Source of the DNA: a virus
Lineage: Duplodnaviria; Caudoviricetes
IMG/VR virus record: IMGVR_UViG_3300037067_026718
Location: 1 to 64,000 of that record
DNA: 64,000 bases
Direction: 5' to 3' (one strand)
The notes below the pieces were generated by a model. It was not told where the DNA came from, did no database searches, and saw only the letters and a list, made by a program, of their open reading frames with translations. Shown here piece by piece: positions 1 to 64,000 of the stretch (position 1 is its first letter; every line of letters begins with the position of its first letter). The translations under genes and the position numbers were made by a program.

Positions 1-237
1 GATGTGGGAAAACACATCCTGATACTCATGTTTGACTACGAACGGGTAGTCTTTTCTGCCGGAATATCCGAGGTAAACACATGGCAAAAATCGAGGGTCA
101 CCATGTGTGTTCCTGCAGCGACGGTATGGACATTCTGTTTCCGACTCAGGCTGTGGTTTGACTACTCTCCTCACCACCACCCGCCCCGTCTCCAGCACCT
201 CTCGCACTTTAGGGCTGGTCAGGATTATGCGCTTCAT
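1..237 (-). CDS. ASCH/PUA-like phage protein, N-terminal part (runs off left edge)
   Basis: Not in ORF track; ATG at 237 gives MKRIILTSPKVREVLETGRVVVRRVVKPQPE, resembling the family N-terminus ILF..MVRAIL.GRKT.TRRVVKPQP. Confidence 0.55.
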   Translation of the reverse strand, partial: MKRIILTSPKVREVLETGRVVVRRVVKPQPESETECPYRRCRNTHGDPRFLPCVYLGYSGRKDYPFVVKHEYQDVFSHI

Positions 238-239
238 GA

Positions 240-464
240 TTACCTCTTTTCCATCAATTCTGCAGGGGTGGGGATGTCTTTCGGTCTGCTTTGTGTGTCA
301 GCAAACTGAAACCCCACCCTCTGCTCAACAAAGGTCTTTGTTCGACCCTGCAGTCCTTCCGTCCATACATACCGGCAGCTTTGGCAACGGTAAGCTCTGC
401 GCCCATCCATGGCTCTACCTTTGTCTATGCCGGTATGCTTACAACTCGGGCAGATGCGCTTCAC
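240..464 (-). CDS. small zinc-ribbon protein (InsA-like CxxC...CxxC)
   Basis: CPSC...YRCQSC; GTG overlaps the upstream stop codon. Confidence 0.55.
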   Translation of the reverse strand: MKRICPSCKHTGIDKGRAMDGRRAYRCQSCRYVWTEGLQGRTKTFVEQRVGFQFADTQSRPKDIPTPAELMEKR

Positions 465-874
465 TCCCCGCCCCCGTTCTGCTCTTGCTTTTCGTACCAA
501 AACACAATTGGCTGTTCTTTGATTTCGAGAAACCCGAACCGCTTGGCTGCTCTTGCTATTGAGTGATGGAAAATTGAGGTTTTGATACGCTCAAGCAAGT
601 AGCGAAAATCCTCTGCAGTATTGCCACCCTTTAGTATGTTGCATGCAGAACACGAAGGAACAAGGTTATCGATGTTCTCACGCTCGGGATAGTTTACTTC
701 CCCGGTAGGAACCAGTCTGTCATATCCGTTTTTGCGTTCGGACTTGAGTTTCCGCTCGACTGGCAAGAAATGGTCAGCATGCCATCCGGTAGCAGGGAGG
801 TCGCAACCGCAGTACCAGCATTTGCCTCCAGACTTGTTCCACACCTGAAGACGCTGTGCTTTGCTCAGCTTCAC
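461..874 (-). CDS. HNH endonuclease
   Basis: CWYCG...HADHFLP...NLVPSCSACNILKG; likely GTG start at 874. Confidence 0.85.
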   Translation of the reverse strand: MKLSKAQRLQVWNKSGGKCWYCGCDLPATGWHADHFLPVERKLKSERKNGYDRLVPTGEVNYPERENIDNLVPSCSACNILKGGNTAEDFRYLLERIKTSIFHHSIARAAKRFGFLEIKEQPIVFWYEKQEQNGGGE

Positions 875-1404
875 TATTGTTCCCCGTTCTGCTCGGCGTC
901 GAGGCTGCTGCATCCTCCGCACTGTGTTCTACCTTCGCCCTTGCAGCCTCCGATGGGCATATCTGACGGCTTGAGTTCGACGAATCTGCTGCATCGTTCG
1001 GCGTCGAGGCTGGAGAGAACATCCTTAGCAAGTTTGTACGGGCAGTCGGACGCATGGCTAATGTGCGCAAAGTCATCACAATCCCAATTCCCGCACGCAC
1101 GACAGTACACTCTTTCAGCCACATCAGAGTAATGATCGAAACTGGCATTCTTCATAACCCTACGAAGAACCTCCGCCAGTTCCTTCTTGTCCACGAGCAG
1201 CGCTTTCAGCTTCCGCATGACGTGGGCGTTCCCTTTGGTCGGGCTGGGATTAGCGAAGGACGGCAGGCAGTCAAGCGCAGCAGCCACAGCGGCCATGAAT
1301 GCTTCGAGAGATTGGATGTACCTCACCGTACCGCTAATTTCACGTTCATGTTTTTCGATGGATAACCGAAGGAAATTGTTCGTTTCCTGATCAATGTCAG
1401 CCAT
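874..1404 (-). CDS. hypothetical phage protein, Cys-rich C-terminus
   Basis: Start refined to MADIDQ (1404); fits the tiling of adjacent genes. Confidence 0.6.
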   Translation of the reverse strand: MADIDQETNNFLRLSIEKHEREISGTVRYIQSLEAFMAAVAAALDCLPSFANPSPTKGNAHVMRKLKALLVDKKELAEVLRRVMKNASFDHYSDVAERVYCRACGNWDCDDFAHISHASDCPYKLAKDVLSSLDAERCSRFVELKPSDMPIGGCKGEGRTQCGGCSSLDAEQNGEQ

Positions 1405-1648
1405 TATTGGCCGTCCCTTCCGATTTCCGCATGGAGGCATTGCATGTGTTGTTCTTCCCCACCGGTATGGTGCAGGTATAAGCGCCACCCTTGCAAGGAT
1501 TCTTGCCAACGAAGAACTGGCAAGAGTAGCACTTTCCCCAGCATCTGCCTCTTGTTTGGTTGTCGCCTGGGGGCCTGTAGCATCGGCACTCTTCACATGG
1601 AATGTCTCCGCGTTTTGCTTTCCTGTAGTGGGGAGCTGGCCAGTTCAT
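1397..1648 (-). CDS. Cys-rich hypothetical protein
   Basis: MNWPAPHYR...; TGATG overlap with the upstream gene. Confidence 0.55.
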   Translation of the reverse strand: MNWPAPHYRKAKRGDIPCEECRCYRPPGDNQTRGRCWGKCYSCQFFVGKNPCKGGAYTCTIPVGKNNTCNASMRKSEGTANNG

Positions 1649-2298
1649 CACTCCCCGCTTTCTCCGTCCTGGGCTTCGTAGATGGCAAGAAGGGTAAGAG
1701 CACGCAGAATGCGGCGGCAATGGGAACACTCGTCCACGGAACAGAGTCCGTAATGGCATGGGGCATTTTTCATGTGTTCTCGATACTGCTCGGGGGTCAT
1801 ATGATAGCCCACCTGTTCCTTCAGCGCCGCTGCCAGAATCTGCATGGTAATCTTTTCTGAGATCGGCTCCGCTGAAGTAATAGACCCTTCTTCGCTCCTG
1901 GATGGGCAGGCAATCCATCCATAGTCAGGCTCTGATAGATCGCCGTCTGGGTCTTCGTGTACCCATAAGCCTTCACCGTTTATGCGGATAGGCTCTCCGC
2001 AGTGCTTGCAAATGCTTTTGATAAGGGGCTCTCTTTTGCTTGGTGTCGCTTCCAATTGACTCATGAAAGCAATGGCCTTATCGCGCTCCTCTTCTTGCAT
2101 CTTCAGCATGGCATCGTAATCGTCTGCGGCGATGATGACAACGTTGAGTCGGTATAGGTTACGAGGATATGCCTTGAGATGGCCCCAGTCAGATACGGCC
2201 ACGTTGACACGGTTGTAGCCGCCCTCGAGTTCGGGGGCTACCACTCCGGCTTCCAGTACGTAGCCACGGATAACACTCGGCGTTTCGTTGTTACTCAT
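1648..2298 (-). CDS. hypothetical phage protein
   Basis: 216-aa ORF with overlapping start/stop junctions; CxxC motifs. Confidence 0.65.
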   Translation of the reverse strand: MSNNETPSVIRGYVLEAGVVAPELEGGYNRVNVAVSDWGHLKAYPRNLYRLNVVIIAADDYDAMLKMQEEERDKAIAFMSQLEATPSKREPLIKSICKHCGEPIRINGEGLWVHEDPDGDLSEPDYGWIACPSRSEEGSITSAEPISEKITMQILAAALKEQVGYHMTPEQYREHMKNAPCHYGLCSVDECSHCRRILRALTLLAIYEAQDGESGE

Positions 2299-2597
2299 TT
2301 ATGCACTGTCCCTTCATGTTCTGCGATCAAAGCCTTTTCCGCACACGCATCGCAGAGAACTACGTTTGGGCCTTTACTCCTGAAGGCAATAGCCATCTTA
2401 TCGCCATTCTCGAATGGTTTTTTGCACCAGAAGCACTGGTCCATGGGGCGCCTGGATTTGGACCTGATGGCTCTGAACCTGTCGCTCATCACCATCCAAT
2501 CCCTCTTTATTGCCGTGAACTGAATCGTCTTCGTCCTGGCAGGCACCCTTTTTGTAAGGACGCCAGGCTTTGCTGCTTTTTCTGTCGCAGTTTTCAA
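2295..2597 (-). CDS. zinc-finger hypothetical protein
   Basis: CFWC...CDAC. Confidence 0.6.
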   Translation of the reverse strand: MKTATEKAAKPGVLTKRVPARTKTIQFTAIKRDWMVMSDRFRAIRSKSRRPMDQCFWCKKPFENGDKMAIAFRSKGPNVVLCDACAEKALIAEHEGTVHK

Positions 2598-2887
2598 TCC
2601 GGAAATCCTTTCTTGGCTTTATTGCCGGGGGTTCCGCACATGCAGTGTTCTTCATTCTCGCCGCATGAGCAGCCTCTTCGATATGTTCCTGCGGGTGGCA
2701 GAACGCCGTCATCCAGATCTGTATCAAGCATGGCTTCGTAGCACTCGGGGTGCATCCTGGTCATGACCCTCTCATCGTAGCAAAACCATCGCCAGTACGT
2801 CGTACCTTTCTCGATGACTTCGTTGCACCAGTCGCAGGTATGGGCCTTGCGGGATTTTTTTACCTGGAGCGCGTCACTGGTTTCCAT
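2594..2887 (-). CDS. zinc-finger phage protein
   Basis: RKAHTCDWC...MHPEC; GGAGG SD. Confidence 0.7.
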   Translation of the reverse strand: METSDALQVKKSRKAHTCDWCNEVIEKGTTYWRWFCYDERVMTRMHPECYEAMLDTDLDDGVLPPAGTYRRGCSCGENEEHCMCGTPGNKAKKGFPD

Positions 2888-2904
2888 TATTCCTCCTAGA
2901 ATAA

Positions 2905-3255
2905 TTAGGCATAACCGACCGCCTTGCCGGTGTTGTGCTCAACTTGAACAGCCCTGTCATCCCAGAGCTCAATCATTTTGAAGTCTTTCTCGGCTGTTAC
3001 ATCAAGGCGGGGAAGACCGTTTTCTTCGAGCCAGTCCTGGATGGCCTTCCTCGCCTTTCCAGCGAATCCTTCAGGCTGAGAAGAGCAAACCCTGGCGGTC
3101 ATTATCTTGACCTCGACCTGGCCACTCGACAGCCACTCAAGAATTCTATCTTTCATGAGTGGAATTATCGGACCTATTGAACAAGGGCCATTCCATTCGG
3201 CATATACAGCCAGTGTCCCGTCGAGGTCTACACCTATCCAAGGCTTTCCCGTCAC
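2905..3255 (-). CDS. HAD-superfamily phosphatase (PNK 3'-phosphatase-like)
   Basis: GVDLDGTL motif I, IMTAR motif II, K...LWDDRAV motifs III/IV. Confidence 0.85.
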   Translation of the reverse strand: MTGKPWIGVDLDGTLAVYAEWNGPCSIGPIIPLMKDRILEWLSSGQVEVKIMTARVCSSQPEGFAGKARKAIQDWLEENGLPRLDVTAEKDFKMIELWDDRAVQVEHNTGKAVGYA

Positions 3256-3602
3256 GGTTTCTCCTTCGGGAACAGGGCGACGGCTTCGTCAAAGATTCTG
3301 CCAAAGAATTGGTCAGATGTTCTATCGCAGAACATATCACGATTGGCCGCCAGCTTACGGCAGATAGCCACTGCCTTCTGTTCCCGTGTCGTCTCCGCAG
3401 CGGGGGCGTCGAGGCTGAATAGAATGTGGTCGGCAGCCGCAAGGGTTCCGCGACATACCTTGACGCACGCCATGTATTCAGCCTTCGATGCGTCACCGTG
3501 GAGGTCTACAGCGTACTGGACATTCATCTCTATGATGCGATTCAAGGCTGTTCGCATCATGTTGATCGACTTCGCCATCTCCTCGCGTGTTACAGTTTCC
3601 AT
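3252..3602 (-). CDS. hypothetical phage protein
   Basis: ORF with SD; fits gene tiling. Confidence 0.6.
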   Translation of the reverse strand: METVTREEMAKSINMMRTALNRIIEMNVQYAVDLHGDASKAEYMACVKVCRGTLAAADHILFSLDAPAAETTREQKAVAICRKLAANRDMFCDRTSDQFFGRIFDEAVALFPKEKP

Positions 3603-3620
3603 CTCTTCCTTTCTTCGGCA

Positions 3621-3869
3621 TCAGAATGCCGTCGGGAAAACCATCTCACCTTGAGTGATCTCCTCGAGCGTTGAAATGGTATCCTCAAGTTGATCTATGG
3701 CATCCCCCAGTTCTTCGTATTTGGCGCTGCCCTGAAGGTTCTCAGGCATGTTGTCCTGCCAGTCCTGGAGCTCGTCGCGCAGCTCAGTGATGCCATCAAT
3801 GACGGCCTGCAGATTCTCCTGGAGATCTGCATACCTTGTAGCTCTACTTTTGGGCTTGGGCTTGGGCAT
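3621..3869 (-). CDS. acidic coiled-coil phage protein
   Basis: ELRDELQDWQDNMPENLQGS pattern common in large phages. Confidence 0.7.
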   Translation of the reverse strand: MPKPKPKSRATRYADLQENLQAVIDGITELRDELQDWQDNMPENLQGSAKYEELGDAIDQLEDTISTLEEITQGEMVFPTAF

Positions 3870-3879
3870 CTTCTATCCC

Positions 3880-4581
3880 TCACAGCATATGTTTTCGGTC
3901 TGCGATCTCACTCAGGAATACGTAGGGGTTATCTGAGTATCGAAGCCCGGGTTGTTTGTAAAGCTGGTTCCAGTGCGTCTTGAACCTTTCGATGATCTGG
4001 CCGGCTGTCGCTCCACATGTCGAGCAGGAACCGTCTATGCCGGCACGGAGGCATTGATCAAACCTGACTTGCTGGACGCGAAGGACTTTGTTCCGTGCTA
4101 CCATCCATTCAAGACGGGAAGCCCATCGAGGCATGTGAGTAGGAGATCTCCACTTTCCGCGGGTGGCCTTGGTGTCGAATCCGAACCTGGGACTGTTGGA
4201 GTAGTACTCATTATCGGCATCGAACCATACCGGCCAATGGAAGATATCCTTGGGCTTGACTGTGTCCAGAGAGTTTTCGACTGCCCACTTCTCCTTGCAC
4301 CACATCGTTGTTGCCGGAGGTCCGAAGGGAGGCCAGATGCGCTGGATGGTGGGCTCTCCGTATTTGCCGCCGCCTTGGGAAACGTGAATGTACTGGTCTT
4401 CTGGAGGCCCATCGATCCAAGCCTGGTCCCAGTCCGGAGCGCCATAAAAGATATTCGGCTTGACCGGTCTGATGATCAACGACCCCACGGCTTGTGTTTG
4501 CATGAGGATGCCTCGGAGGATCGCCCGGACTTCATCACCACGCAGGCATATGGCTTGTTCCTCGATGTCAGTCATAGTCAC
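3880..4581 (-). CDS. ASCH/PUA-like phage protein
   Basis: VRAILRG...WCKEKW...WRSPTHMPRWASRL...W...NPYV. Confidence 0.75.
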   Translation of the reverse strand: MTMTDIEEQAICLRGDEVRAILRGILMQTQAVGSLIIRPVKPNIFYGAPDWDQAWIDGPPEDQYIHVSQGGGKYGEPTIQRIWPPFGPPATTMWCKEKWAVENSLDTVKPKDIFHWPVWFDADNEYYSNSPRFGFDTKATRGKWRSPTHMPRWASRLEWMVARNKVLRVQQVRFDQCLRAGIDGSCSTCGATAGQIIERFKTHWNQLYKQPGLRYSDNPYVFLSEIADRKHML

Positions 4582-4696
4582 CTTCTGTCTTTCTGTTCTC
4601 TCTCTTGTGATAGATCGTCAGTGCAGCCAGAAAGCCCAGGACGTATCCCACCATGCCGGCTACGATGGCCACAGCAAGCCATTCGGATGGAGTCAT
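4568..4696 (-). CDS. 42-aa single-TM protein
   Basis: Not in track: MTPSEWLAVAIVAGMVGYVLGFLAALTIYHKRENRKTEGDYD; fills the intergenic gap. Confidence 0.55.
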   Translation of the reverse strand: MTPSEWLAVAIVAGMVGYVLGFLAALTIYHKRENRKTEGDYD

Positions 4697-4699
4697 CTG

Positions 4700-5068
4700 C
4701 TACTCATCATCGGGATCGGACTCGTTGAGACCGTCATCGAGGAAGTCGTCATCCTCTCGAATGTCATCAGCAGGGTCGCTGTCATCGATTGCATTCAGCT
4801 CATCGAAGTGGAGCTGCACGTTGGCGGCTATCTCTGCCACCTTCTTCTCAGCGGCTTCCACGGCCGCCTTGAGCTCTGCCATGGATGAAGGATCCCCGTT
4901 GTTGATGATGTCCTGGAAGGAATCCTTGATGAGGTCGCTGAGCTTGGGGTAATGCCCGACCAGGGATTTGGATTTGCCTTCGCTTTTCCTCCGATACATG
5001 GACCAGCAAAGAGCATCATGGGACATAAAGTATTCAGAGCCTAAGATTGGGATTTCTTTCTGGGACAC
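4700..5068 (-). CDS. hypothetical protein with very acidic tail
   Basis: GTG at 5068 after AAAGGA; D-rich C-terminus. Confidence 0.6.
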   Translation of the reverse strand: MSQKEIPILGSEYFMSHDALCWSMYRRKSEGKSKSLVGHYPKLSDLIKDSFQDIINNGDPSSMAELKAAVEAAEKKVAEIAANVQLHFDELNAIDDSDPADDIREDDDFLDDGLNESDPDDE

Positions 5069-5094
5069 GAAGGTATTCCTTTCTTTTTTATTGG

Positions 5095-5195
5095 GGCGCC
5101 CACTGGTCAACCACGCGCTACCCGTCCTCAGTTCGACCCCGATTTGATTATCGACGGAGTCTGTTGGCCTAAGCCTTGTCCGTTGCGTGGGCGCC
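5095..5195 (-). ncRNA. structured RNA motif A, copy 1
   Basis: GGCGCCCAC...GTGGGCGCC 9-bp closing stem; shares GCAACGGAC and GGTTGACCA with 6506-6629. Confidence 0.6.
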
Positions 5196-5203
5196 TTGAA
5201 CGT

Positions 5204-5386
5204 TCATTTCTTTCTGTTCGCCTTCCTGGAGTTGGTGGCGATCTTGGCCTTACGTTTGGCCTTCTTATCCCTCTTCTTCGGCCTGGGGGGTGTTCGATCA
5301 TCGGGCATGTTGTATCCGTCGTCCCCTATCCCCATGGCTACCGCTGCTGCCATGAGAATCGCTGCCCCTGTTCTGCCAGACATCAT
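5204..5386 (-). CDS. small protein, hydrophobic N-terminus and very basic tail
   Basis: K/R-rich C-terminus; overlap junction. Confidence 0.5.
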   Translation of the reverse strand: MMSGRTGAAILMAAAVAMGIGDDGYNMPDDRTPPRPKKRDKKAKRKAKIATNSRKANRKK

Positions 5387-5688
5387 TCACTCACAGGCCA
5401 GAAGCCGTAATCGGCTCCGTCGCCCGGGTGAGCCCCGAAGAAGCAGCCTTCCGGGGCCAGCGCGTTGAGCTTGGTGAAGAGCTCATCGAGGAAGAACCCG
5501 GCTTCCTCGGAATCCCACCATTCGTCATCGTCGTCCTTTTCCTGGGACAAGATGTACAGTGGATCCGTGGCTACCAGGTCCATCTGCTCTTCATCAAGAA
5601 ATTCCAGTTCGGCAAGGAAAGCCGGAATGAGCTCCTGTGGCTTCATGGTGCCGGCCAACACCGTTCCGCATACCGGGGTAGGCATCAC
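5383..5688 (-). CDS. conserved acidic early phage protein
   Basis: GTMKPQELIPAF...FGAHPGDGADYGFW. Confidence 0.7.
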   Translation of the reverse strand: MMPTPVCGTVLAGTMKPQELIPAFLAELEFLDEEQMDLVATDPLYILSQEKDDDDEWWDSEEAGFFLDELFTKLNALAPEGCFFGAHPGDGADYGFWPVSE

Positions 5689-5924
5689 TTCCTCCTGTTT
5701 ATCTTACGGGATTTGCTGGCCTGGACGTCAATTGAGGGAGCCTGCTTCAGAGGACCGAAGACTCGGAGGATCTCCCGCATTCGGTTTATGTCATGGGTGA
5801 GATCCTCACAACTCGCGTTGCCCTTAGCTTTCTCAAAAGTTATGCTGAATCTCTCTCCAACCTTCTTCCTCTGCTCTTCGTGCTCCAGCAGAAGCGCCTT
5901 ACGAGTTCCGAAAACTCCGCCCAT
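5685..5924 (-). CDS. hypothetical protein
   Basis: Fits gene tiling. Confidence 0.5.
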   Translation of the reverse strand: MGGVFGTRKALLLEHEEQRKKVGERFSITFEKAKGNASCEDLTHDINRMREILRVFGPLKQAPSIDVQASKSRKINRRK

Positions 5925-5984
5925 GCCCTACCTTCTTATCGACTTGGATGCCGCCGTGTAGGCCTCTGGATCGGCAGCCCGTTT

Positions 5985-6356
5985 CTAGCCCATGACCTTC
6001 GAGTAATATGCTCCGACCTTCCCGGCAAAGAAAGGATCTCCAGATTCAGCCAATCTCCACTTGGAGAGAAGCTGCTGGATGTCGGATCTGTCAATCCATC
6101 TTCTCATTTCCAGCTCTTCTGGTGTCCAGTCGGGTAGGCTGGTGTCGTAGATGATCTTGCTGGTACGCATGTAATGCGTATGCTCAACTGCCAGAAACTC
6201 CATGTGGGGGTACAGCCGCTTCTTCTCCTTGGCGAGGTCGATCACCTCTTGAGCTGTTTGCCACTCTCCCCTGCTCCGGCTGTCCCTTTCATCCACGATC
6301 AGAACCGTGCTGCCGTCGTCGTTTTTGTGCCATAGCTTGTAATAGATTATTTCCAT
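5985..6356 (-). CDS. hypothetical phage protein
   Basis: MEIIYY start after AAGGAG; WRLAESGDPFFAG motif. Confidence 0.6.
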   Translation of the reverse strand: MEIIYYKLWHKNDDGSTVLIVDERDSRSRGEWQTAQEVIDLAKEKKRLYPHMEFLAVEHTHYMRTSKIIYDTSLPDWTPEELEMRRWIDRSDIQQLLSKWRLAESGDPFFAGKVGAYYSKVMG

Positions 6357-6438
6357 CAGTACTCCTTGTTGATCATGAAACATGGTTTTGTGAGACACAA
6401 CTGATCTTGTTGCTCACGGATGAGACTCAAAAGAGAGA

Positions 6439-6499
6439 TGCCCCCGAGCGTTTCCGTTGGTAGTTGGAGGCTTCCATACGAAAACATTGCCCGGGGGCA
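6439..6499 (-). ncRNA. structured RNA motif B, copy 1
   Basis: GCCCCCGGGCAATGTTTTCG...CGGAAACGCTCGGGGGC; homologous to 29957-30011. Confidence 0.55.
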
Positions 6500-6505
6500 A
6501 TTCGA

Positions 6506-6629
6506 AGCGCACACTGGTCAACCGCTCGCTTCCCACCCCGGATTTCTGGCTTGTTTCCTTCGAAGAACACCCTAACCCCGAAGGCGGCTGGGCCTGCCGG
6601 GCACTGGCTTCGTCCGTTGCGTGTGCGCT
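6506..6629 (-). ncRNA. structured RNA motif A, copy 2
   Basis: AGCGCACAC...GTGTGCGCT stem, compensatory changes relative to copy 1. Confidence 0.6.
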
Positions 6630-6640
6630 GTTTTTTATCC

Positions 6641-6847
6641 TGATACCGAGGCAGGATTCGAACCTGCACGAGATATGCTTGGTGTTAGTCGGCACCCATT
6701 GCGGGGGCATTCGTTATTATTTTCACCAAGTTTTTAAGGACGGCCTACCTTCCGGCTGCTTACCCGACTTGTCTTACAACGTAGGCTTTTGCCCGTCCTC
6801 CTCTAACCCGATAAGCGTAGCGTCTTCTTTTCCGCCACTCGGTATCA
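6641..6847 (-). ncRNA. tRNA-shaped RNA with a large structured insert in place of the anticodon loop
   Basis: 10-bp terminal stem TGATACCGAG/CTCGGTATCA, Leu-type D arm TGGCGGAA...AGACGC, perfect T arm GCAGGTTCGAATCCTGC. Confidence 0.7.
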
Positions 6848-6858
6848 GCGTTGTTCTT

Positions 6859-6944
6859 TGGTACCGGAGAAGGGAGTTGAACCCTTACGCCCCGAAGAGC
6901 AATAGAGTTTGGGTCTACCGCGTCTGCCATTCCGCCACTCCGGC
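6859..6944 (-). tRNA. trnL: tRNA-Leu(CAA)
   Basis: GCCGGAG/CTCCGGT-A-CCA, long variable arm, anticodon loop CCCAAAC (atypical C33). Confidence 0.85.
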
Positions 6945-7379
6945 ATCTTTTCTCTTATTCCTTCGAACAGTACTTCTCTTGCCATGCCAAGTCTTCTTTG
7001 CTTTCAAGCAAATATCACATTGGCACTTCTTTTTCATCCAACCGTACAGAGTCCCATGCGTGAAGCCCTTTTCTTTCCCTTTTAAGGGGCTCGGTCTTCC
7101 AGTTAGCGATAAAGTGGCATGCTCACTGGCTGATAGTATCTCCAGGTTCTCTATACGGTCGTCAGTTACATCTCCGTTGATATGATGGATATGCTCGTCA
7201 GGCCGCAGTGTTCTTCCAATGTCCTCTTCTACTATGCGACGCGATCTCAGGACGTGCTTTTTTCTGCCGTCTGCATACGTATATTGGAAAAAAGCTCTTC
7301 CAGCTCTAGCCTTGTCCTTAATACGCGCTCCATAGAAGTATGGGCCATCGATTTTAATGACTTCATCTGGATTATTCAT
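6915..7379 (-). CDS. free-standing HNH homing endonuclease
   Basis: HIHHINGDVTDDRIENLEILSASEHATL; HGTLYGW..KCQCDIC; last 10 codons lie inside tRNA-Leu. Confidence 0.85.
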   Translation of the reverse strand: MNNPDEVIKIDGPYFYGARIKDKARAGRAFFQYTYADGRKKHVLRSRRIVEEDIGRTLRPDEHIHHINGDVTDDRIENLEILSASEHATLSLTGRPSPLKGKEKGFTHGTLYGWMKKKCQCDICLKAKKTWHGKRSTVRRNKRKDAGVAEWQTR

Positions 7380-7393
7380 GCGACCTCTTAAAG

Positions 7394-7718
7394 TGGTGGA
7401 CCCGTCGGGATTCGAACCCGAGTCCGAATTGAAACGTCATAAGTCTTCTACGTGCGTAGTCCGTTTACGGATGGACTTCCGAGGGCGGGTCTCCCCGCCT
7501 CCACCACCTGCTTTTTACGGAGCAGGAACCATCTCCAGCGTTCCCCGTGCATTAACGTCCCGACCTTTTCCCCGGGGAAGTACTCAGCGGGACGGTCGCT
7601 TACGCGACTCGGAGTTCTCTTGTGCCAGTTATTGGCTGATCCTTGTTTTACGTCTCCTGGATCAAAGACGGCACGCTTACTCATAACATCCTTCAACCCG
7701 TCGAGACCTGTCGGGCCC
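7394..7718 (-). ncRNA. ssrA: tmRNA
   Basis: GGGCCCG/CGGGTCC-A-CCA with G3:U70, T arm GGTTCGAATCC, ATAACT resume context, tag ORF GTRELRVA-stop at 7626-7600. Confidence 0.93.
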
Positions 7719-57315: not shown

Positions 57316-58044
57316 CTAAACCCGGGGGATCCTTCGTAGATAGTTCATCGTATTTTTGCGCAGCAATGCCGAGGCCAGGGCTCCTGCTGCGGCACCAATG
57401 AGAGTAGTCCTTGCGGATAGCAAATAGTTTCTGTAAGTGGCCAATGCGGACATGCGGACTGGGCTGTTCTCGGGGACCCCGGCCCTGTTCCAGGCTTCTA
57501 CTTCCTGCCTGTACAAAGGAGTGTTTTCTGGATCCGAGAACATGGAAGATATCATCGACCGGTACTGGCCTCGTCTTTTCGTAAGAGATCCCGATTCCTT
57601 CCAGTCGCTGTAATGCCCCAGTTCATGGCGCATGACTTCATCAACCACTGGAGGCTTCACGGATATGGCTGGCTTGCCTCCCTTGACAGGAGGTTCAACA
57701 AAGAAACCGTGCCCTGGTCTTGTGGAGTTCAAAGCTTTGCGGTAGAGCATCCGCTTCAGAACATTCACGCCTGGCTGCTTGAGCCATTTGTTTATCTCTT
57801 CTTTGTTGGAAAGTACGCTGATATCTTCCGGGAATGATGTAACATCGAATTTCTTCGCTTTTCCAAATTCTCGTTCCACTTTCGACAACGCTACCAATGA
57901 GATAATCGTGTTGGCGAGCATTCCAGCCATGGATCCAGCTACTGCTCCTCCGAATATTTCCCTGCCTGGAACAGGGCCACTCGACCATCCCGCACGCTTC
58001 TCGAGCTCTATCCTGGCTGCAAGCTTGATGATGTGGTGGTTCAT
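57316..58044 (-). CDS. HExxH zinc-metallopeptidase-like protein with two hydrophobic segments and KxA motifs
   Basis: VMRHELGH...QEVEAW; IKLAA...EKRAG; GGAVAGSMAG; IGAAAGALA. Confidence 0.65.
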   Translation of the reverse strand: MNHHIIKLAARIELEKRAGWSSGPVPGREIFGGAVAGSMAGMLANTIISLVALSKVEREFGKAKKFDVTSFPEDISVLSNKEEINKWLKQPGVNVLKRMLYRKALNSTRPGHGFFVEPPVKGGKPAISVKPPVVDEVMRHELGHYSDWKESGSLTKRRGQYRSMISSMFSDPENTPLYRQEVEAWNRAGVPENSPVRMSALATYRNYLLSARTTLIGAAAGALASALLRKNTMNYLRRIPRV

Positions 58045-61000
58045 CAGTACTCCCCTGTTCTCCAGAGATCTCTTCCGAAGTCGATGCCTTGCAGGAACGG
58101 AGTAACTGGCTTTACTCCTTTTGAAGGACTCATGGCGCCCATGGCTGCGCTTTCCTGAAGCTGTCGAACCATGTCTCTACCCAGCATCTTGAGTGCCCAG
58201 TCAGGTTCGTTTTTTGCCAGATCGTAATCCATGCCGTCAAAGACCGGTTCGTACTTGATCAGCGCATCGCTGTCGCCTATATCCGCATTGATCGCCTGCA
58301 GCTCTTTGATGTCCTTGATGTCACCTGTCATCATGTCCTGGCTGCTGCCGGGATCCAAAACCTTGCCGTATCTCGTAAGGGCCGCCACTACTGTCTCTAT
58401 GTACCGGCGGTCTGGAGCCTTGCCGCCGTAGTTCCTTTCGATTTCGTCAACAAGGTAGTTCTGCATGGCCCTAAGGCCGTTGTATTTCATGACATCGTTG
58501 GGATCCGGAAGACCTTCATTGATCTGAAATCCGGCCTTCAGGCGATCGCCTACGGCAACCTTGAGCGGAGCATTGGTAGACGTGGTGAAAGACGTTCCGT
58601 CCTGCATGATGATTTCGTAGCCGCCGCCTCGCATCTTATTGATCTTGCCCACCACGCCGGCCTCAGGAGCAAGAGTGGCCTTCGCTCCGGCAGGGGCTCT
58701 TCCATTCAAGAGAGGCCAGATGGCATACAAGCCTTCTATTTTGTTGCTGGAAAGAGCGGAGCCTCCACCATGGAAAGCCTTCAACGTGAGCTGAACAGCC
58801 GGCTCGGTAAGGGTGTGGGCCGATATGACTCCTATGTCGGCGCCGACCTTCGGCTTCTCTCCATCCGGGAGTCTACCGAAATCCTTGGCGTAGAACCCGG
58901 TTTTTGCCACTGACGTCAAGGGAGATCTTACCATCACCGTCTTGATCTTGTTCGAACGGGCTGATGCTATCAGCTCTTCTGTTATGGGATCCCCGGCCAC
59001 GGCCAATGTTTTCCCCGCCGGGGTTACCAGGTCGAAAGCCAGGTATCTCTGAAGCACGGTGGGATGGTCAATGGGATACTCGATACCATCGGTAGGGTTT
59101 GCATCTCCGGGTGCCACTACGCTGCCCAGGGTAGACCTCAGAAGCTGCTTGCTGAAATAGCCGGGCTCCCTGACTTCAATGCTCTTCGAATGCAGAGCAG
59201 GCCGGTTGCCTTTCGATGCCACCCAGTAGTCCATGAAATCGAGTCCTTCTCCGTATCCGGTGCGGATCAGATGAGGGATAGGGCCGTCGAATCCGTTCAC
59301 CGTCATGGGAGAAAACTTGATCTGCATGACATTGGACCAATTCCCCTTGGCTCCGGAATCAGCAAGGACGGCAACTGCCGACCGAGGGTCTATTGAAGAC
59401 CTGAGCCTGGAGTAGACAGAGTCGGTTTCCTTCTGAGCCAAGAAGCCGCCAACGGACTTGGACATCTCTTCCTTGCTTATCGGCATGAAGTCCTTCAGGC
59501 TGAATGACAACCCAACCCTGGTGTTGAAGGCATTGCCCAGATCGGTGAGTTTCATCAAAGTGTTGACGTAATCCCCGGGAGCATGCTTACCCACAGCGTT
59601 GAGTATCTCGCCTATCTTCTTGTCGTTGTAGACTACATTGTAACCCTGTCTGAACTGCTCAGGAATGGCTTTGTTCACCAAAATACGACCGGCAGTGACA
59701 ACGACATTGCCTTTGTCTGTTTTGAGGGTTACTCCGTCATTGAGGGCTATTTCATTGGCTTCGTAAGCCTCTATGACTTCCCTCTCGGTGGTGTACTTCT
59801 TGTCGGGCCTCGGGTCTACGAAGTGAGTACCGTAATAGAGGCCGGCAATGGTGTCTTCCTCGGGACGCATGATCGTCTGGTCCAGCCCGGGCTTGAACAG
59901 GTTCTTGGATGGCAGCAGCTTTTCTCTGGCTTCCCTCACCGCTTCGTCGGAAACCGGGACGGAATAGCCCATTGCATCGCCATCGAAGTCGGCATTGAAG
60001 CCACGGGCTATCAAAGGACTGATCTCCATGGACTTGCCCGGTATCATCTTGGCCCAGAAAGCCATGACGTTGAACTTGTGGAGCTTGGGGTCCCTGGTGA
60101 TCATGACCGGACGATGTTTCATCTCGGCCTGCAGAGTTGCTTCAGCCAAAGCTTCCCTGTCTTCTATCATCCGCCTGGCTTCCAGAGGGGGGATGCCTTC
60201 CTTGGTCAGCCTGCGCATTACGAAAGAATGGAAGAGCGGCCATGCTGATTCTTCGGGAAGTCCGATCTCGTCTACGGACAAACCGGGATTGGGCCTGATG
60301 ACTGCACGGCCGCCAACCGACTGACGTTTGTCGAATATCTTATCCTGGAAATGCCCCCAGGAGGAAGACTCCCCCTTGAGATATTCGAGGATCCCGGTCC
60401 TCGGCTTGGCTCCGTACCCTATGCCCGTGGCCCCTATCTGGATCGCCTTTACGGCATCGTAGAGGTTCGTCCTCACTTCATCCAGTACGGAGGCCGGCAT
60501 GCTGCCCTGGCCGTCCTTGAGCGTCATGGCAAGCGTTCCTATGTCCTGGTACAGAGCTGTGAAATCACTGACCCTTATCCCGTTGTCTTTCGTGAGGTAC
60601 ACCGGTCTGAACTGCGGAGGAAGAACCGGAACCTTGGATATGACGTAAGCGTTCTCCGGTTTGATGCCGATGCGCTGCAGAGCGTTCAGGTACCGCAATT
60701 TCTTGACCATGGCATCCTTGGCAGTACCGGTGTGATTGGGGATCATCTCCTTCAAAGACTTGATGGAAGACTCTACGTCAATGGACGAAAGCATGGCTTT
60801 GAAAGCATGGCCACCGGTGATGGACTTGTCCCCCTTTACCCGGGGAGCCAGTACTCCGTCTTTGTACCCTACCCTGCCGGCGATGATGTCATCATAGGCG
60901 CCCTGCGTCAGGCCCAGGATGGCTCTGATAGCCTTTTCGTAAACCGGGTTGGGAAGAGGCTCCGCCAGGGAGATATGCCCCCATTTGTCTCCCTGCATGC

Positions 61001-64000
61001 CTCCAAGAAGCTTTTCATCGTAGAGGCCGCCTTCGTATGACTGCAACATCTCGTATTTACCGGGACGCCCGATCCGGGTGGCCATCGCTGGATTGGGTAT
61101 TTCGCCCGAACTCATCCTGTCGACTTCTCTGTCGGTGAGAGGCAAAAGCTGGTAATTGTCGCCTTGCTTGCGGACATCAATGCCGGCGCCTTTGAGTAGT
61201 GCCTGCAACTTTTTGAACGCAAAGGTCATCTGGGGCGATGGAATGTTGCTGCCTTCCTCAACGGCCCTCCAGAAATCATCGTTCTTCTCGCTCTTGGTGG
61301 TCGCTATCTCCCGCAGGTTGCTCGTGGCTCCATGGGCCAACAGAGCGTAGAATCCCAGGCCTCCCATCTTGGGTCCCTTAATGGGGCGCTGGCTGACTAT
61401 GTCGTAAGGATCGCTTCTGTTGCGAACATTGAAGTACGGCTCGGCCTCCTGCTTCTGCCGGGTAAAGTACTGATACCCGGTCATTACCTTGATGGGCCTG
61501 TCACCATCCTTGATGGGATTGCCGTCCTTGTCGTAGATCTCTTCCTGGTCTTCAAGACCGTATTCCTTCATTTTCTTGTATACGGCCTCCGGAGAGCTCC
61601 CCTTCAGGTTGAAAAGCTCCACAATGAAAGGTATACCGGTGTGGGCGGCTATCTTCGAAGCTGCGGCCTCGATTACCTGGCCGGTGTTGTTCCTTGAGGT
61701 GACGGCGGCCGGGTTCTGAAGAATGTCGAACGGCTGACCACTTTTGTCATGAGGCATTTCATCGTCGGGAAGGATCGCAGATACGACGCCCTTCGCCTGA
61801 TGACGATTGGAATTGCCAGTCCAGCATGCCTTCCCGTTGCGACGGACATACATCACATGGTTGGGAACAGTGCAGCAATACACCAGGCCGTCGTAATCAA
61901 CCAGTTTTTCCTCCTGGATGTGCTGTGACTTTGTATGGCCATGGTTGACCATGGGCTCAGTTTTCTTCCTGATAACAGAAACCCTGTATCGATCGGCATG
62001 GGCTTCATTGTCATCCCTAAGGCACGGAGTTACATTGGCAGCCATCCCGGCTTTCAATGCTATTTCCTGAACGTCATCAGCCAAGCGCTTACTCGTAGTG
62101 GAGTAACTCACACATGAAAAACTGGAGCCGTCGCAAGAAAGCAGTGCATCCAAAAGAATATTCATCTGCCTCTGCGACAACTCCATGAACTCCCTGGGGA
62201 CATACTTGTCGTTGGCGTGTCCGAGTACCGATAGATACTCATTGAGCTGCCTTGAGGATATGATGATTTTGCCTTCCCTGGGATTGTACGGCCACTTCAT
62301 TCTATCAAGGCATGCTGTGATTCTGTGGTAGACGTAACCACCATACGAATTCTTTGTTGTTTTATTCTTATTGATAGTTACGTAATATCCATCTTTCGAG
62401 AAATGGCCATCAGCTATGTAATACCCCAGGAATTCCAGCCAGTCATCCATGGCTACTTCAGGAAGCCCATGGGGGCTGAAGCCATGATGACGGCCATCCA
62501 CAGTCAGCAGGCAAAACTCTGATGCTTCCTTACCTATCCAAGTTCCATTCTTCTTGTACTGGACTCGTCGGCCCATAATATCCTGAGCCTGATGCAAGGC
62601 GAATGATTGAGCTCTCCGCGTTTTGACCAGCATGTTGTGATTGAGAGTCGTCAGCAAGTCGATCTGCTGAGACCGGATGCCATACATTTTTCCGGTGTGC
62701 CAATAGGAGAACACAGCCTCTGGATGCTGGTATTCCACAATTCCGGTATCCTGGTTGAGCGTGCATACCTGCTCATTAACGGTGAGATCAGAAACCGGGA
62801 TCCAACCCCTCTGGGTAAGGTATTCGTGGTCATCTGAAAGACACAGCTTATCCCCTGTCTTTACCGACCGCTCCGACCGCACGAAAATCTTGATCCCGGT
62901 GGGAGTACGGACTATTCTTTCGACGACGCCCGGGTCGCTGGCTTCCCAGACCTTGTCATCCCTGATCAGTTGCTGCTTCATTACCTGGCTCACATTGCCT
63001 GCCAGGATATCCTCCTGGGTCAAGCTTTTGGGGGTGAGCTTGAGGATGATAGGGTCACCGGTGTTCAACACGGTGCCTTCTTTGACAACTCCGTCATCAT
63101 CTATGTTGTCGAGCTGCATGGCCCGGTACTCTTTGGGATAGAGGGCCTTGAACCTGTTCTTATTGAAAACGTCATGCTTCCTGGAGCTGGCTTCCACCTG
63201 GTCTACGTGGATGGCTTTCATCTTCTCGGCAGCGCTCTCGGATATCAGCAGGCCGTCCATGAAGTTCCAGCCCTTGTATGGAAGAAAGGCCACTCTGAGA
63301 TTGCGCCCCATAGCCAGCATGCCGTTCCTGATGAAACTGTTGGTGGCGACTGCCTGCCCCTTCTTTACTATTTCACCCGCCTTTACAACGGGTATTTCAT
63401 GGATGACATTGCCTCCGTTGAGAGGGTAGTTTGTGTAAAGCTCTATGTCTTCGGTATCGCCGGTCTTGATGTCGCGCAGGGTGATGGAGTCCTTCTTCAC
63501 CTTCACGACTTCGCAATCGCCCATGTAAGAAGGAACGCGCCGAGAGAATCGGTTGCCGAACTCTTGTTCCGCGGTGAAGACGGATCCATCCGCGTTTTTG
63601 TGAACCCCGGCCAATACCAAGGGGTTTTCCGGCTCTGCAAGCATGAGAGCATGTGTGCTTTGCTTGACGGACATAGTGCTTCTTGTAGGAATGTTGTTGG
63701 GAAGGAATGGGATCAAAAGGCTTGCCCAGTCAAAAGCATGGTGGGGGGAGGCTATGACGTAATCGATCTTCGAGTATGGAACCTCAACTATCTCGCCGTG
63801 ATGCAATGCCTTTACCTTGGCCTTGTTGGGAAGGTACACCCCGGTTTCGCGCATGCTGTACTCACCAGGAATGGCGGTGTACTTGTCGTATATCTCCCGG
63901 GGGGTAACCGCCTTTGTTCCGGATTGCTTGCCCGTGGTGAAATCGAGAACGGAAGCCTTGAGCTCCCTCCCCACCTTCCGGGCGCCGGACGACAGATGCA
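58044..64000 (-). CDS. rpoBC: fused beta-beta' multisubunit-type RNA polymerase (5' end beyond window), intein-containing
   Basis: beta: GRNLRVAFLPYKGWNF.D, GDKL/SNRHQAKGVV, NP..V.SR.N.GQ; beta': WGHISL, VPVLPPQFRP, RAVI.P.P.L, R.P.LH, NADFDGD (59976-59996), SGAKG, EPAVQLTLKAFH; frame open to 64000. Confidence 0.95.
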   Translation of the reverse strand, partial: HLSSGARKVGRELKASVLDFTTGKQSGTKAVTPREIYDKYTAIPGEYSMRETGVYLPNKAKVKALHHGEIVEVPYSKIDYVIASPHHAFDWASLLIPFLPNNIPTRSTMSVKQSTHALMLAEPENPLVLAGVHKNADGSVFTAEQEFGNRFSRRVPSYMGDCEVVKVKKDSITLRDIKTGDTEDIELYTNYPLNGGNVIHEIPVVKAGEIVKKGQAVATNSFIRNGMLAMGRNLRVAFLPYKGWNFMDGLLISESAAEKMKAIHVDQVEASSRKHDVFNKNRFKALYPKEYRAMQLDNIDDDGVVKEGTVLNTGDPIILKLTPKSLTQEDILAGNVSQVMKQQLIRDDKVWEASDPGVVERIVRTPTGIKIFVRSERSVKTGDKLCLSDDHEYLTQRGWIPVSDLTVNEQVCTLNQDTGIVEYQHPEAVFSYWHTGKMYGIRSQQIDLLTTLNHNMLVKTRRAQSFALHQAQDIMGRRVQYKKNGTWIGKEASEFCLLTVDGRHHGFSPHGLPEVAMDDWLEFLGYYIADGHFSKDGYYVTINKNKTTKNSYGGYVYHRITACLDRMKWPYNPREGKIIISSRQLNEYLSVLGHANDKYVPREFMELSQRQMNILLDALLSCDGSSFSCVSYSTTSKRLADDVQEIALKAGMAANVTPCLRDDNEAHADRYRVSVIRKKTEPMVNHGHTKSQHIQEEKLVDYDGLVYCCTVPNHVMYVRRNGKACWTGNSNRHQAKGVVSAILPDDEMPHDKSGQPFDILQNPAAVTSRNNTGQVIEAAASKIAAHTGIPFIVELFNLKGSSPEAVYKKMKEYGLEDQEEIYDKDGNPIKDGDRPIKVMTGYQYFTRQKQEAEPYFNVRNRSDPYDIVSQRPIKGPKMGGLGFYALLAHGATSNLREIATTKSEKNDDFWRAVEEGSNIPSPQMTFAFKKLQALLKGAGIDVRKQGDNYQLLPLTDREVDRMSSGEIPNPAMATRIGRPGKYEMLQSYEGGLYDEKLLGGMQGDKWGHISLAEPLPNPVYEKAIRAILGLTQGAYDDIIAGRVGYKDGVLAPRVKGDKSITGGHAFKAMLSSIDVESSIKSLKEMIPNHTGTAKDAMVKKLRYLNALQRIGIKPENAYVISKVPVLPPQFRPVYLTKDNGIRVSDFTALYQDIGTLAMTLKDGQGSMPASVLDEVRTNLYDAVKAIQIGATGIGYGAKPRTGILEYLKGESSSWGHFQDKIFDKRQSVGGRAVIRPNPGLSVDEIGLPEESAWPLFHSFVMRRLTKEGIPPLEARRMIEDREALAEATLQAEMKHRPVMITRDPKLHKFNVMAFWAKMIPGKSMEISPLIARGFNADFDGDAMGYSVPVSDEAVREAREKLLPSKNLFKPGLDQTIMRPEEDTIAGLYYGTHFVDPRPDKKYTTEREVIEAYEANEIALNDGVTLKTDKGNVVVTAGRILVNKAIPEQFRQGYNVVYNDKKIGEILNAVGKHAPGDYVNTLMKLTDLGNAFNTRVGLSFSLKDFMPISKEEMSKSVGGFLAQKETDSVYSRLRSSIDPRSAVAVLADSGAKGNWSNVMQIKFSPMTVNGFDGPIPHLIRTGYGEGLDFMDYWVASKGNRPALHSKSIEVREPGYFSKQLLRSTLGSVVAPGDANPTDGIEYPIDHPTVLQRYLAFDLVTPAGKTLAVAGDPITEELIASARSNKIKTVMVRSPLTSVAKTGFYAKDFGRLPDGEKPKVGADIGVISAHTLTEPAVQLTLKAFHGGGSALSSNKIEGLYAIWPLLNGRAPAGAKATLAPEAGVVGKINKMRGGGYEIIMQDGTSFTTSTNAPLKVAVGDRLKAGFQINEGLPDPNDVMKYNGLRAMQNYLVDEIERNYGGKAPDRRYIETVVAALTRYGKVLDPGSSQDMMTGDIKDIKELQAINADIGDSDALIKYEPVFDGMDYDLAKNEPDWALKMLGRDMVRQLQESAAMGAMSPSKGVKPVTPFLQGIDFGRDLWRTGEY
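61812..62843 (-). mobile_element. 344-aa intein with LAGLIDADG homing endonuclease
   Basis: Starts CLSDDHEYLTQRGW; block B TTLNHNM; FLGYYIADG and LDALLSCDG; ends VYCCTVPNH..VRRNG..WTGN followed by Ser. Confidence 0.93.

Follow-up and report, generated by a model that had tools for sequence, protein, structure and literature searches.

Two related stretches of intergenic DNA on one strand of a phage genome raise a simple question: do they encode the same RNA, and what could such an RNA do? Both lie in a window of 64 kb, the first part of contig C3 (157,672 bp) in a metagenome bin of 4.85 Mb. A sequence-only reading of the window had reported a repeated RNA motif on the minus strand, and the sequences which it quoted are present at 5095-5195 and 6506-6629. 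We find that these elements, referred to as copies 1 and 2, are real copies of one structured RNA, far beyond chance. The motif is an uncatalogued, widespread, phage-specific small RNA family.

The two copies are framed by a closing stem, P1, whose 9 bp include two pairs in which both bases have changed in a compensatory manner (one from G-C to A-U, one from C-G to A-U); the two swaps claimed earlier can be read directly in the sequence. The strands common to both copies are (G)CAACGGAC(R)A.GC and GGG(U/A)AGCG(N)G(Y)GGUUGACCA, in which R stands for a purine and Y for a pyrimidine. The CAAC/GTTG helix and the conserved purine-rich loops described before are present, but the helix (P2) does not end there. 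It runs on past a GGA bulge into a C-G pair and an R-Y pair, the latter covarying between the copies (A5177-U5113 in copy 1, G6611-C6524 in copy 2). Between the apical parts there is no relationship (36 nt in copy 1, a branched domain of 59 nt in copy 2); they were rightly called entirely different. Within the window, two conserved 12-mers have exact matches at copies 1 and 2 only. Each copy stands between plausible genes, in agreement with the intergenic position assigned to both (Table 1).

The copies were scored with a covariance model (CM) whose seed held sequences of other phages only, the window copies being left out. When IMG/VR was scanned with either conserved strand as an exact pattern, most of the matches proved to be true members, and each had a closing stem of its own. 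Nineteen minimal members (73-83 nt) with a hand-written structure constitute alignment A1, from which the model, CM R1, was built. It matches copy 1 with 62.6 bits (E 7.7e-14) and copy 2 with 52.2 bits (E 3.9e-11). In the 4.85-Mb assembly there is one sole further match, at C3:154873-154992, and all three copies are located on the phage contig. This third copy is an allele of copy 1 in an overlap of strain variants: its flanks and downstream gene are 90-97% identical while its apical domain is wholly different, and its P1 contains a U-G pair. In two sets of phage loci from IMG/VR, CM R1 gave 85 and 74 matches, amounting to 120 distinct sequences, usually one per locus. A model search of the assembly and of phage contigs, which the sequence-only reading had proposed as a check, has in this way recovered the third copy and many phage homologs.

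Covariation is observed throughout the helices. All 11 pairs of P1 covary in A1. In a second alignment (A2, 72 distinct rows), paired cells reach 93.5%; shuffles give 66.5% and slid partners 26-47%. The score for covariation is 0.68 versus 0.16, and one core pair is U-G 18 times. Among 112 unique sequences, the R-Y pair is A-U in 86 and G-C in 25 cases, one P2 pair is A-U in 98 and G-C in 14, and mutual information reveals nested helices only. A divergent member has UAGC/GCUA as P2 and a GCCA loop, with CCA kept.

From the outside to the apex, the predicted consensus fold comprises P1 (9-11 bp, free sequence), a 1x4 loop with a purine opposite A-C-C-A, P2 (CAAC/GUUG), the GGA bulge, the C-G and R-Y pairs, a loop with AG opposite GNG, GC/GC pairs, a loop with U(U/A)AGG opposite R-U-G-G-G-W, and the apical P4 hairpin or domain, which ranges from a bare tetraloop to >100 nt. 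The alignments show a predicted core consisting of one irregular, unbranched hairpin, with P1 and P4 free in sequence and always paired. About 40 nt of internal loops and short helices are near-invariant in phages of 35-72% G+C, and the core is as invariant as that of a ribozyme. One subgroup of members shares the apical loop G-UAAACAAU-C (A1 columns 33-54; loci L151:12569-12648, L142:9614-9694 and L185:1086-1166), and larger members have a hairpin inserted between UGA and ACAAG at the same apical place. This suggests a second, optional functional site.

Table 1. Coordinates of the motif copies and of features discussed in the text. Positions refer to the window unless a locus, contig or accession is given.
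Feature	Coordinates	Strand	Description	Basis
Motif copy 1	5095..5195	(-)	101 nt, runs 5195->5095	sequence read
Copy 1, closing stem P1	5195-5187 / 5103-5095	(-)	GGCGCCCAC / GUGGGCGCC	
Copy 1, loop	5186; 5107-5104	(-)	unpaired G opposite ACCA	
Copy 1, P2	5185-5182 / 5111-5108	(-)	CAAC / GUUG	
Copy 1, bulge	5181-5179	(-)	GGA	
Copy 1, pairs after bulge	5178/5112; 5177/5113	(-)	C-G; A-U	
Copy 1, 3' core	5123-5114	(-)	GGGUAGCGCG; apical domain of 36 nt	
Motif copy 2	6506..6629	(-)	124 nt, runs 6629->6506	sequence read
Copy 2, closing stem P1	6629-6621 / 6514-6506	(-)	AGCGCACAC / GUGUGCGCU	
Copy 2, loop	6620; 6518-6515	(-)	G opposite ACCA	
Copy 2, P2	6619-6616 / 6522-6519	(-)		
Copy 2, bulge	6615-6613	(-)	GGA	
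Copy 2, pairs after bulge	6612/6523; 6611/6524	(-)	C-G; G-C	
Copy 2, apical domain		(-)	branched, 59 nt	
Gene directly downstream of copy 1	4700..5068	(-)	122 aa, acidic C-terminus; weak phrog_154 match	
Terminator-like hairpin and U-tract directly after copy 2	6486..6501	(-)		consensus scan and sequence read
tRNA-like stretch between tRNA-Leu and copy 2	6641-6847	(-)	canonical T-arm (GGTTCGAATCC) and acceptor-like 3' strand	sequence read
tRNA-Leu	6859-6944	(-)		Rfam/ARAGORN
tmRNA (transfer-messenger RNA)	7394-7718	(-)	one-piece, 125 bits; short predicted tag peptide GTRELRVA	Rfam/ARAGORN
Fused beta-beta' RNA polymerase	58044-63974	(-)	1,976 aa; Rpb2 domain 6 and Rpb1 domains 2, 3, 5; intein/LAGLIDADG insert	
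Single motif copy of StarPlatinum	94,920-94,998 (MH576965)		unannotated, inside tRNA array	
DUF2828+DUF7788 protein	L190:8959-10383		predicted TROVE ring and vWA	phrog_850 'RNA-binding protein'
DUF2828+DUF7788 protein	L124:11746-13092		predicted TROVE ring and vWA	phrog_850 'RNA-binding protein'
TROVE (Ro60/Rsr-type) gene	C72:6588-8522		644 aa; separate 10.5-kb contig, 56% G+C; only TROVE gene of the bin	

Neither the motif in the window region nor a minimal member has a match in Rfam 15, at the gathering cut-off or at E<=10, and catalogued riboswitches, ribozymes, Y RNAs, 6S RNA and signal recognition particle (SRP) RNA are therefore excluded. The earlier statement that the motif is not recognisable as a known riboswitch, ribozyme, 6S or SRP RNA accordingly stands. 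So does the notion of a structured RNA module acting on the minus strand, which is now backed by many homologs, massive covariation and the lack of an Rfam match. ARAGORN and Rfam detect no cloverleaf or tRNA-like domain in the motif, and literature searches for the core strings and for RNA motifs of phage tRNA arrays returned nothing relevant. Several other likenesses were considered and rejected, namely the K-turn, loop E/sarcin-ricin, SRP domain IV, 5S loop E, GEMM-I, yybP, the archaeal bulge-helix-bulge and integron attC: strand order or pairing does not fit, and Rfam gives no support.

The family is essentially confined to phages. In viral contigs, matches of the 3'-core pattern are true members with few exceptions; a loose DNA pattern with two anchors gave mostly chance matches in GC-rich coding DNA there, which were filtered. 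When 185,579 prokaryotic genomes (one per species) were scanned with the 3'-core pattern, the 5' core accompanied only 3 of the 118 matches listed, the remainder being chance matches in GC-rich coding DNA. The G+C range of the members implies many host groups. With regard to cultured phages, BLAST located the motif in relatives of StarPlatinum that infect Streptomyces (20 records). No copy is present in Mycobacterium phage Phabba, which has a tRNA-Leu similar to that of the window.

Going beyond the sequence-only reading, the family is not only phage-wide but also tied to tRNA/tmRNA islands. A tRNA lies within 300 nt of 21 of 65 instances (measured from instances with 12-nt flanks), most of them at a distance of 0-5 nt, and tRNAs within 1 kb are on the strand of the motif in 23 of 23 cases. 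In tRNA arrays, the motif RNA fills a tRNA-like slot with spacers of 1-5 nt. In four phages, a sigma70-type promoter is followed by the motif at start-site distance and then, gapless, by a permuted two-piece tmRNA; here the alpha_tmRNA model overlaps the motif through unstructured leader columns only. In other loci, the motif is found between protein genes, in some cases so that the ribosome-binding site of an unrelated gene follows after 5-20 nt, and copy 1 is of this kind.

Strand and copy number bear on the idea that the motif works as DNA, as a recombination site or folded single-strand signal comparable to an integron attC-like site or an origin. As an imperfect inverted repeat with a variable centre, the motif flanks a four-gene block in the window, and its CAAC/GTTG pair recalls the core sites of attC. 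However, the G-U pairs occur on the gene-sense strand only, where the opposite strand would have A-C. The co-orientation with tRNAs is strict, and there is usually one copy per genome instead of copies flanking cassettes. We regard a DNA-level role as extremely unlikely.

No protein family is universally linked to the motif: the 1,756 open reading frames (ORFs) of 120 loci include no family that recurs in over 12 of these loci. The neighbours seen most often are a stand-alone PNKP-type phosphatase, homing endonucleases, a phrog_3754 protein and an RNase H-like protein. RNA-repair genes nearby are represented by the PNKP-type phosphatase in 12 of the 120 loci and by an RNA ligase in one. A recurrent cassette (L124:10860-13092; also in L148, L173, L191 and L349) consists of a PNKP-type HAD phosphatase of ~155 aa, an ORF of ~95 aa, the motif and a variable gene. 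The latter encodes a Ro60-like DUF2828 protein in L124, a ParB-nuclease-like protein in L191 and proteins of 705-719 aa in L136 and L349.

The motif also occurs as a unit of its own. In StarPlatinum, a promoter-like site (TTGACA-17-CATACT), the motif and a terminator hairpin of ~70 nt with a U-tract follow one another (L314:2945-3135, about 94,873-95,063 of MH576965). This arrangement is relevant for one of the roles initially proposed, that of an antiterminator: a cis-acting nascent-RNA element which would modify RNA polymerase (processive antitermination, like HK022 put) and promote read-through of tRNA/tmRNA arrays and operons. The motif at the predicted sigma70 transcription start ahead of the tmRNA in four phages is in line with such a role, and so might be its presence at operon heads and within long untranslated arrays, which would run a risk of Rho-dependent termination. 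Nevertheless, terminators directly follow the motif in StarPlatinum and in the window, and the motif is often found in the middle of an array, not at its head. Since stand-alone promoter-RNA-terminator units exist and copy 2 itself precedes a terminator, a dedicated antiterminator is disfavoured. Moreover, a single RNA polymerase surface is unlikely as the common target because the hosts belong to many phyla and because this phage has its own beta-beta' RNA polymerase. Altogether, we consider antitermination very unlikely. The other roles which had been suggested, a processing site and a decoy or protein-binding RNA, are compatible with the contexts.

Our preferred interpretation, which is tentative, is that the motif is a stable trans-acting RNA engaging a factor that reads tRNA acceptor ends, and that its helix-NCCA loop imitates a pre-tRNA end. 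In at least 96% of members, ACCA stands directly 3' of the CAAC/GUUG helix (GCCA in the divergent one), with a single purine opposite. The motif thus presents an acceptor-end layout, with a helix end, a single-stranded N-C-C-A on the 3' strand and an unpaired base at -1. The 1x4 loop 3' of the 4-bp helix would correspond to N-1, the 1-72 pair, N73 and CCA of a pre-tRNA, with leader and trailer paired as P1. A partner reading acceptor ends is favoured because this pre-tRNA layout is found in an RNA located among RNase P substrates.

The sequence of events might be as follows. Motif genes, or modules embedded in transcripts, would be transcribed together with tRNAs, tmRNA or mRNA leaders. Release may then be left to the processing enzymes of the flanking tRNAs: RNase P would cut on the 3' side, and tRNA 3'-end processing would act on the 5' side. 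The released RNA would act in trans via its invariant loops. One candidate partner is RNase P, which could cut before the CAAC helix and leave a CCA-ended hairpin; another is an enzyme or a toxin with the acceptor end as its target. The RNA could accordingly serve as a substrate mimic, decoy or scaffold in the tRNA/tmRNA/RNA-repair toolkit of the phage. The variable apical domain is best seen as a putative accessory or specificity module because it is exchanged wholesale between near-identical variants (flanks 90-98% identical).

Comparison with established RNase P substrates gives a mixed picture. Motif and pre-tRNA acceptor end share the helix end, the unpaired N-C-C-A of the 3' strand, the one unpaired base opposite and the location among RNase P substrates. 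In contrast to these, the motif has no elbow of T-arm and D-arm, its acceptor-like helix extends for only 4 bp before the bulge, and its flanks are sealed by a helix of 9-11 bp. Substrates of RNase P other than tRNAs do exist, as exemplified by the precursors of 4.5S RNA and of phage P1 C4 RNA.

A second comparison concerns species 1 and 2 of T4 (rnaC and rnaD), which are likewise small stable RNAs other than tRNAs in a phage tRNA array. They are presumably released by tRNA processing, and their function has been a puzzle for decades. Unlike the motif, which spans phages of many host groups, they are confined to T4-like phages. Homology between the two was examined and rejected: with filters off, the best CM R1 score in the T4 tRNA cluster is 11 bits, and the whole T4 genome is negative.

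Several points weigh against a partner that reads acceptor ends. The proposal is drawn entirely from a layout of letters. RNase P substrates do not typically have a leader-trailer helix of 9-11 bp, which would also be an obstacle to 3' trimming. Position -1 is often U in pre-tRNAs, whereas the motif has a purine opposite ACCA. The invariance of the core is partly a matter of ascertainment, since members were fished with exact patterns of one invariant core strand; with the 5' strand as bait, the 3' strand is nearly invariant, and the reverse also holds. Finally, about two thirds of the instances are not beside tRNAs, and placement before a ribosome-binding site fits a cis role at least as well.

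The main rival of this trans-acting RNA is a new class of self-cleaving ribozyme or an RNA-processing insulator, which would cut polycistronic phage transcripts at the motif border. Such a cut would free the 3' ends of tRNAs and the tmRNA acceptor piece at its 5' end, and it would give mRNAs a defined 5' end protected by a hairpin. We judge it unlikely on balance, for reasons which pull in both directions. As in small ribozymes, ~40 near-invariant internal-loop nucleotides are combined with helices of free sequence, and the two conserved loops, parted by a bulged helix, could conceivably dock. Still, no pseudoknot or candidate cleavage site is identifiable by mutual information in the 112 unique sequences, and no Rfam ribozyme (hammerhead, twister, twister-sister, pistol, hatchet, hairpin, HDV) matches at E<=10 with permissive filters. 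The genomic contexts are those of phage ribozymes, either abutting tRNA 3' ends like the HDV-like theta ribozymes (PMC10879173) or intergenic and before ribosome-binding sites; there is likewise no gap between the motif and the first position of the permuted tmRNA model. On the other hand, the stand-alone promoter-RNA-terminator units contain nothing to process. The stand-alone PNKP-type 3'-phosphatase, 25-600 nt upstream in ~10 loci, would be suited to heal 2',3'-cyclic ends, yet this linkage concerns 10% of the loci only, and these belong to related phages. Theta ribozymes (PMC10879173) resemble the motif as small, highly conserved phage RNAs abutting tRNA 3' ends. They differ from it in their nested double pseudoknots (P1/P1.1/P2/P3/P4) and 5'-end cleavage, whereas the motif consists of the nested helices of a single unbranched hairpin.

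A further explanation is suggested by genes for Ro60-like proteins in some of these phages. The motif might be an analogue of Y RNA in which P1 and the conserved loops bind a Ro60-type ring protein (TROVE/DUF2828 of the phage or Rsr of the host), while the variable apex tethers an effector, for instance PNPase, by analogy with bacterial complexes of Ro60, Y RNA and PNPase. The architecture is Y-RNA-like, with paired 5' and 3' ends, a conserved purine-rich loop region and a variable apex. The Ro site of vertebrate Y RNAs reads GGUCCGAAGGUAG. The motif strand GGAC(R)AGGCUUAG resembles it, as UUGACC resembles UUGACU. For bacterial Ro sites, the sequence to compare is GNCGAAN0-1G (PMC4201824). The likeness is partial: set against the GGUCCGA/UUGACU bulged helix, the motif strands GGAC(R)AGG and GGUUGACC adopt another pairing register, and CGAA is absent (PMC4201824, PMC12135203). 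Indeed, covariation pairs CAAC with GUUG and R with Y, and not the GGUC/GAC bulged helix of Y RNAs.

The gene content is similarly divided. Among 49 motif-bearing phage records, TROVE is present in 7, including StarPlatinum, whose TROVE protein is encoded ~12 kb upstream of the motif, and DUF2828 in 6, with no overlap. Restricted to the 19 records which are at least 90% complete, 6 have a Ro-like gene; put the other way, two thirds of the complete motif-bearing phages have none. In L124 and L190, motif and DUF2828 gene share a strand, with the motif 100-170 nt upstream, but these are the only 2 of the 49 records in which it is adjacent to a Ro-type gene. Conversely, the motif occurs in 0 of 80 DUF2828 loci (+-10 kb) and in 0 of 50 records with a DUF2828 gene that were searched whole; it is also missing from the surroundings of DUF2828 homologs that share 57-60% identity with the L190 protein. 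It is found in 1 of 50 diverse TROVE-bearing records, where the copy is divergent (these records stem from an alignment query, as a single-protein query returned only close relatives of StarPlatinum). The assembly of the window has a TROVE gene on contig C72, near which no YrlA or motif match is seen, whereas the phage contig C3 carries neither TROVE nor DUF2828.

The likeness of the DUF2828+DUF7788 protein to Ro60 is one of predicted fold. Its AlphaFold model (pLDDT, the model's confidence score, of 75) has Ro60/TROVE proteins as the top 13 matches of a fold search against the PDB (E 1e-7 to 1e-4); a PDB sequence search gave nothing useful. The DUF2828 family is very large: of 8,000 proteins scored, 4,337 reach E<=1e-10, and IMG/VR contains at least 469 loci; a literature search found no functional paper on it.

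Matches to known Y RNAs are lacking as well. The Rfam models Y_RNA (RF00019) and YrlA (RF02553) do not match the window copies or the minimal member at E<=10. The YrlA test is able to find such an RNA because the model detected a different RNA beside a phage Ro gene: L414:508-618 scores 44.9 bits (below the Rfam gathering threshold of 69) directly upstream of a TROVE gene. The same phage carries a motif copy (L065), and one phage therefore holds a YrlA-like RNA beside its Ro gene in addition to this motif. With the bacterial and phage Y RNAs (YrlA RF02553; Yrl1 and Yrl2 of Thermus phage phiLo, PMC12135203; PMC4201824), the motif has in common a size of ~75-160 nt, the end-pairing stem, a purine-rich loop near the stem, a variable apical module, a short resemblance to Ro-binding strands and RNA-repair genes nearby, and a quarter of the motif phages encode a Ro60-type protein. 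It differs from them in its pairing register, in lacking CGAA and a tRNA-like module, in generally not residing beside a Ro gene, in its absence from 99 of 100 Ro-type-bearing phage records and in matching no Rfam model. We conclude that motif and Ro genes co-occur because both reside in phages rich in tRNAs and equipped for RNA repair, and that the partnership is not an obligate one. A Y-RNA analogue is a minor rival and rather improbable.

In the window itself, copy 1 is located 9 nt after the stop of the ORF 5386-5204 and ~27 nt before the GTG start at 5068. The third copy precedes a 90%-identical counterpart of the same downstream gene (4700-5068). Copy 2 stands between the tRNA-like T-arm (about 6660-6642) and the terminator-like hairpin. 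The stable-RNA genes upstream of it (6641..7718) are on the same strand, an RNA-island setting as in other phages, and the terminator-like hairpin suggests that copy 2 ends a stable-RNA transcription unit. The stretch 6641-6847 is called a tRNA by neither ARAGORN nor Rfam. A second hairpin with a U-tract (GGGGGCAUCUCUC-UUUUGA; 6433-6499, minus strand) is located after the terminator of copy 2.

Contig C3 is a phage, with a tmRNA, three tRNAs, an S1-domain protein, a DUF5131 protein and a cytosine methylase in addition to its RNA polymerase (Table 1). Its first part, C3:1-4696, recurs at 149068-153766 with 98.4% identity; thereafter the correspondence becomes patchy, with an extra ~700 bp and blocks of 90-95% (window 1-5721). 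From this recurrence of head and tail it follows that C3 is an element of ~149 kb and that its assembly ran past its own end by combining two close variants. The apical domain of the motif is one of the segments replaced between these strain variants.

The motif would provide a compact, modular RNA scaffold whose apical slot accepts 4 to >100 nt. As an RNA of ~75 nt that keeps ~40 invariant nucleotides in phages of hosts at 35-72% G+C, it must contact something universal or do chemistry itself. The part of the genome in which it is located sustains translation under host attack, by means of RNA ligases and end-healing phosphatases as well as tRNAs and tmRNA. Even the cultured phages which carry it, relatives of StarPlatinum that infect Streptomyces, lack an annotation for it, and it can therefore be tested at the bench. 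We would put it no higher than a possibility that a new RNA class is at hand here which acts either as a self-cleaving ribozyme, cutting tRNA, tmRNA and mRNA precursors in phages of many host phyla, or as an RNase P-released helix-NCCA decoy against host defences aimed at acceptor ends. Any of the mechanisms considered, be it a ribozyme, an RNase P-dependent mimic of tRNA ends, a Ro-type partner or a decoy, would if true add a new functional RNA class to phage biology.

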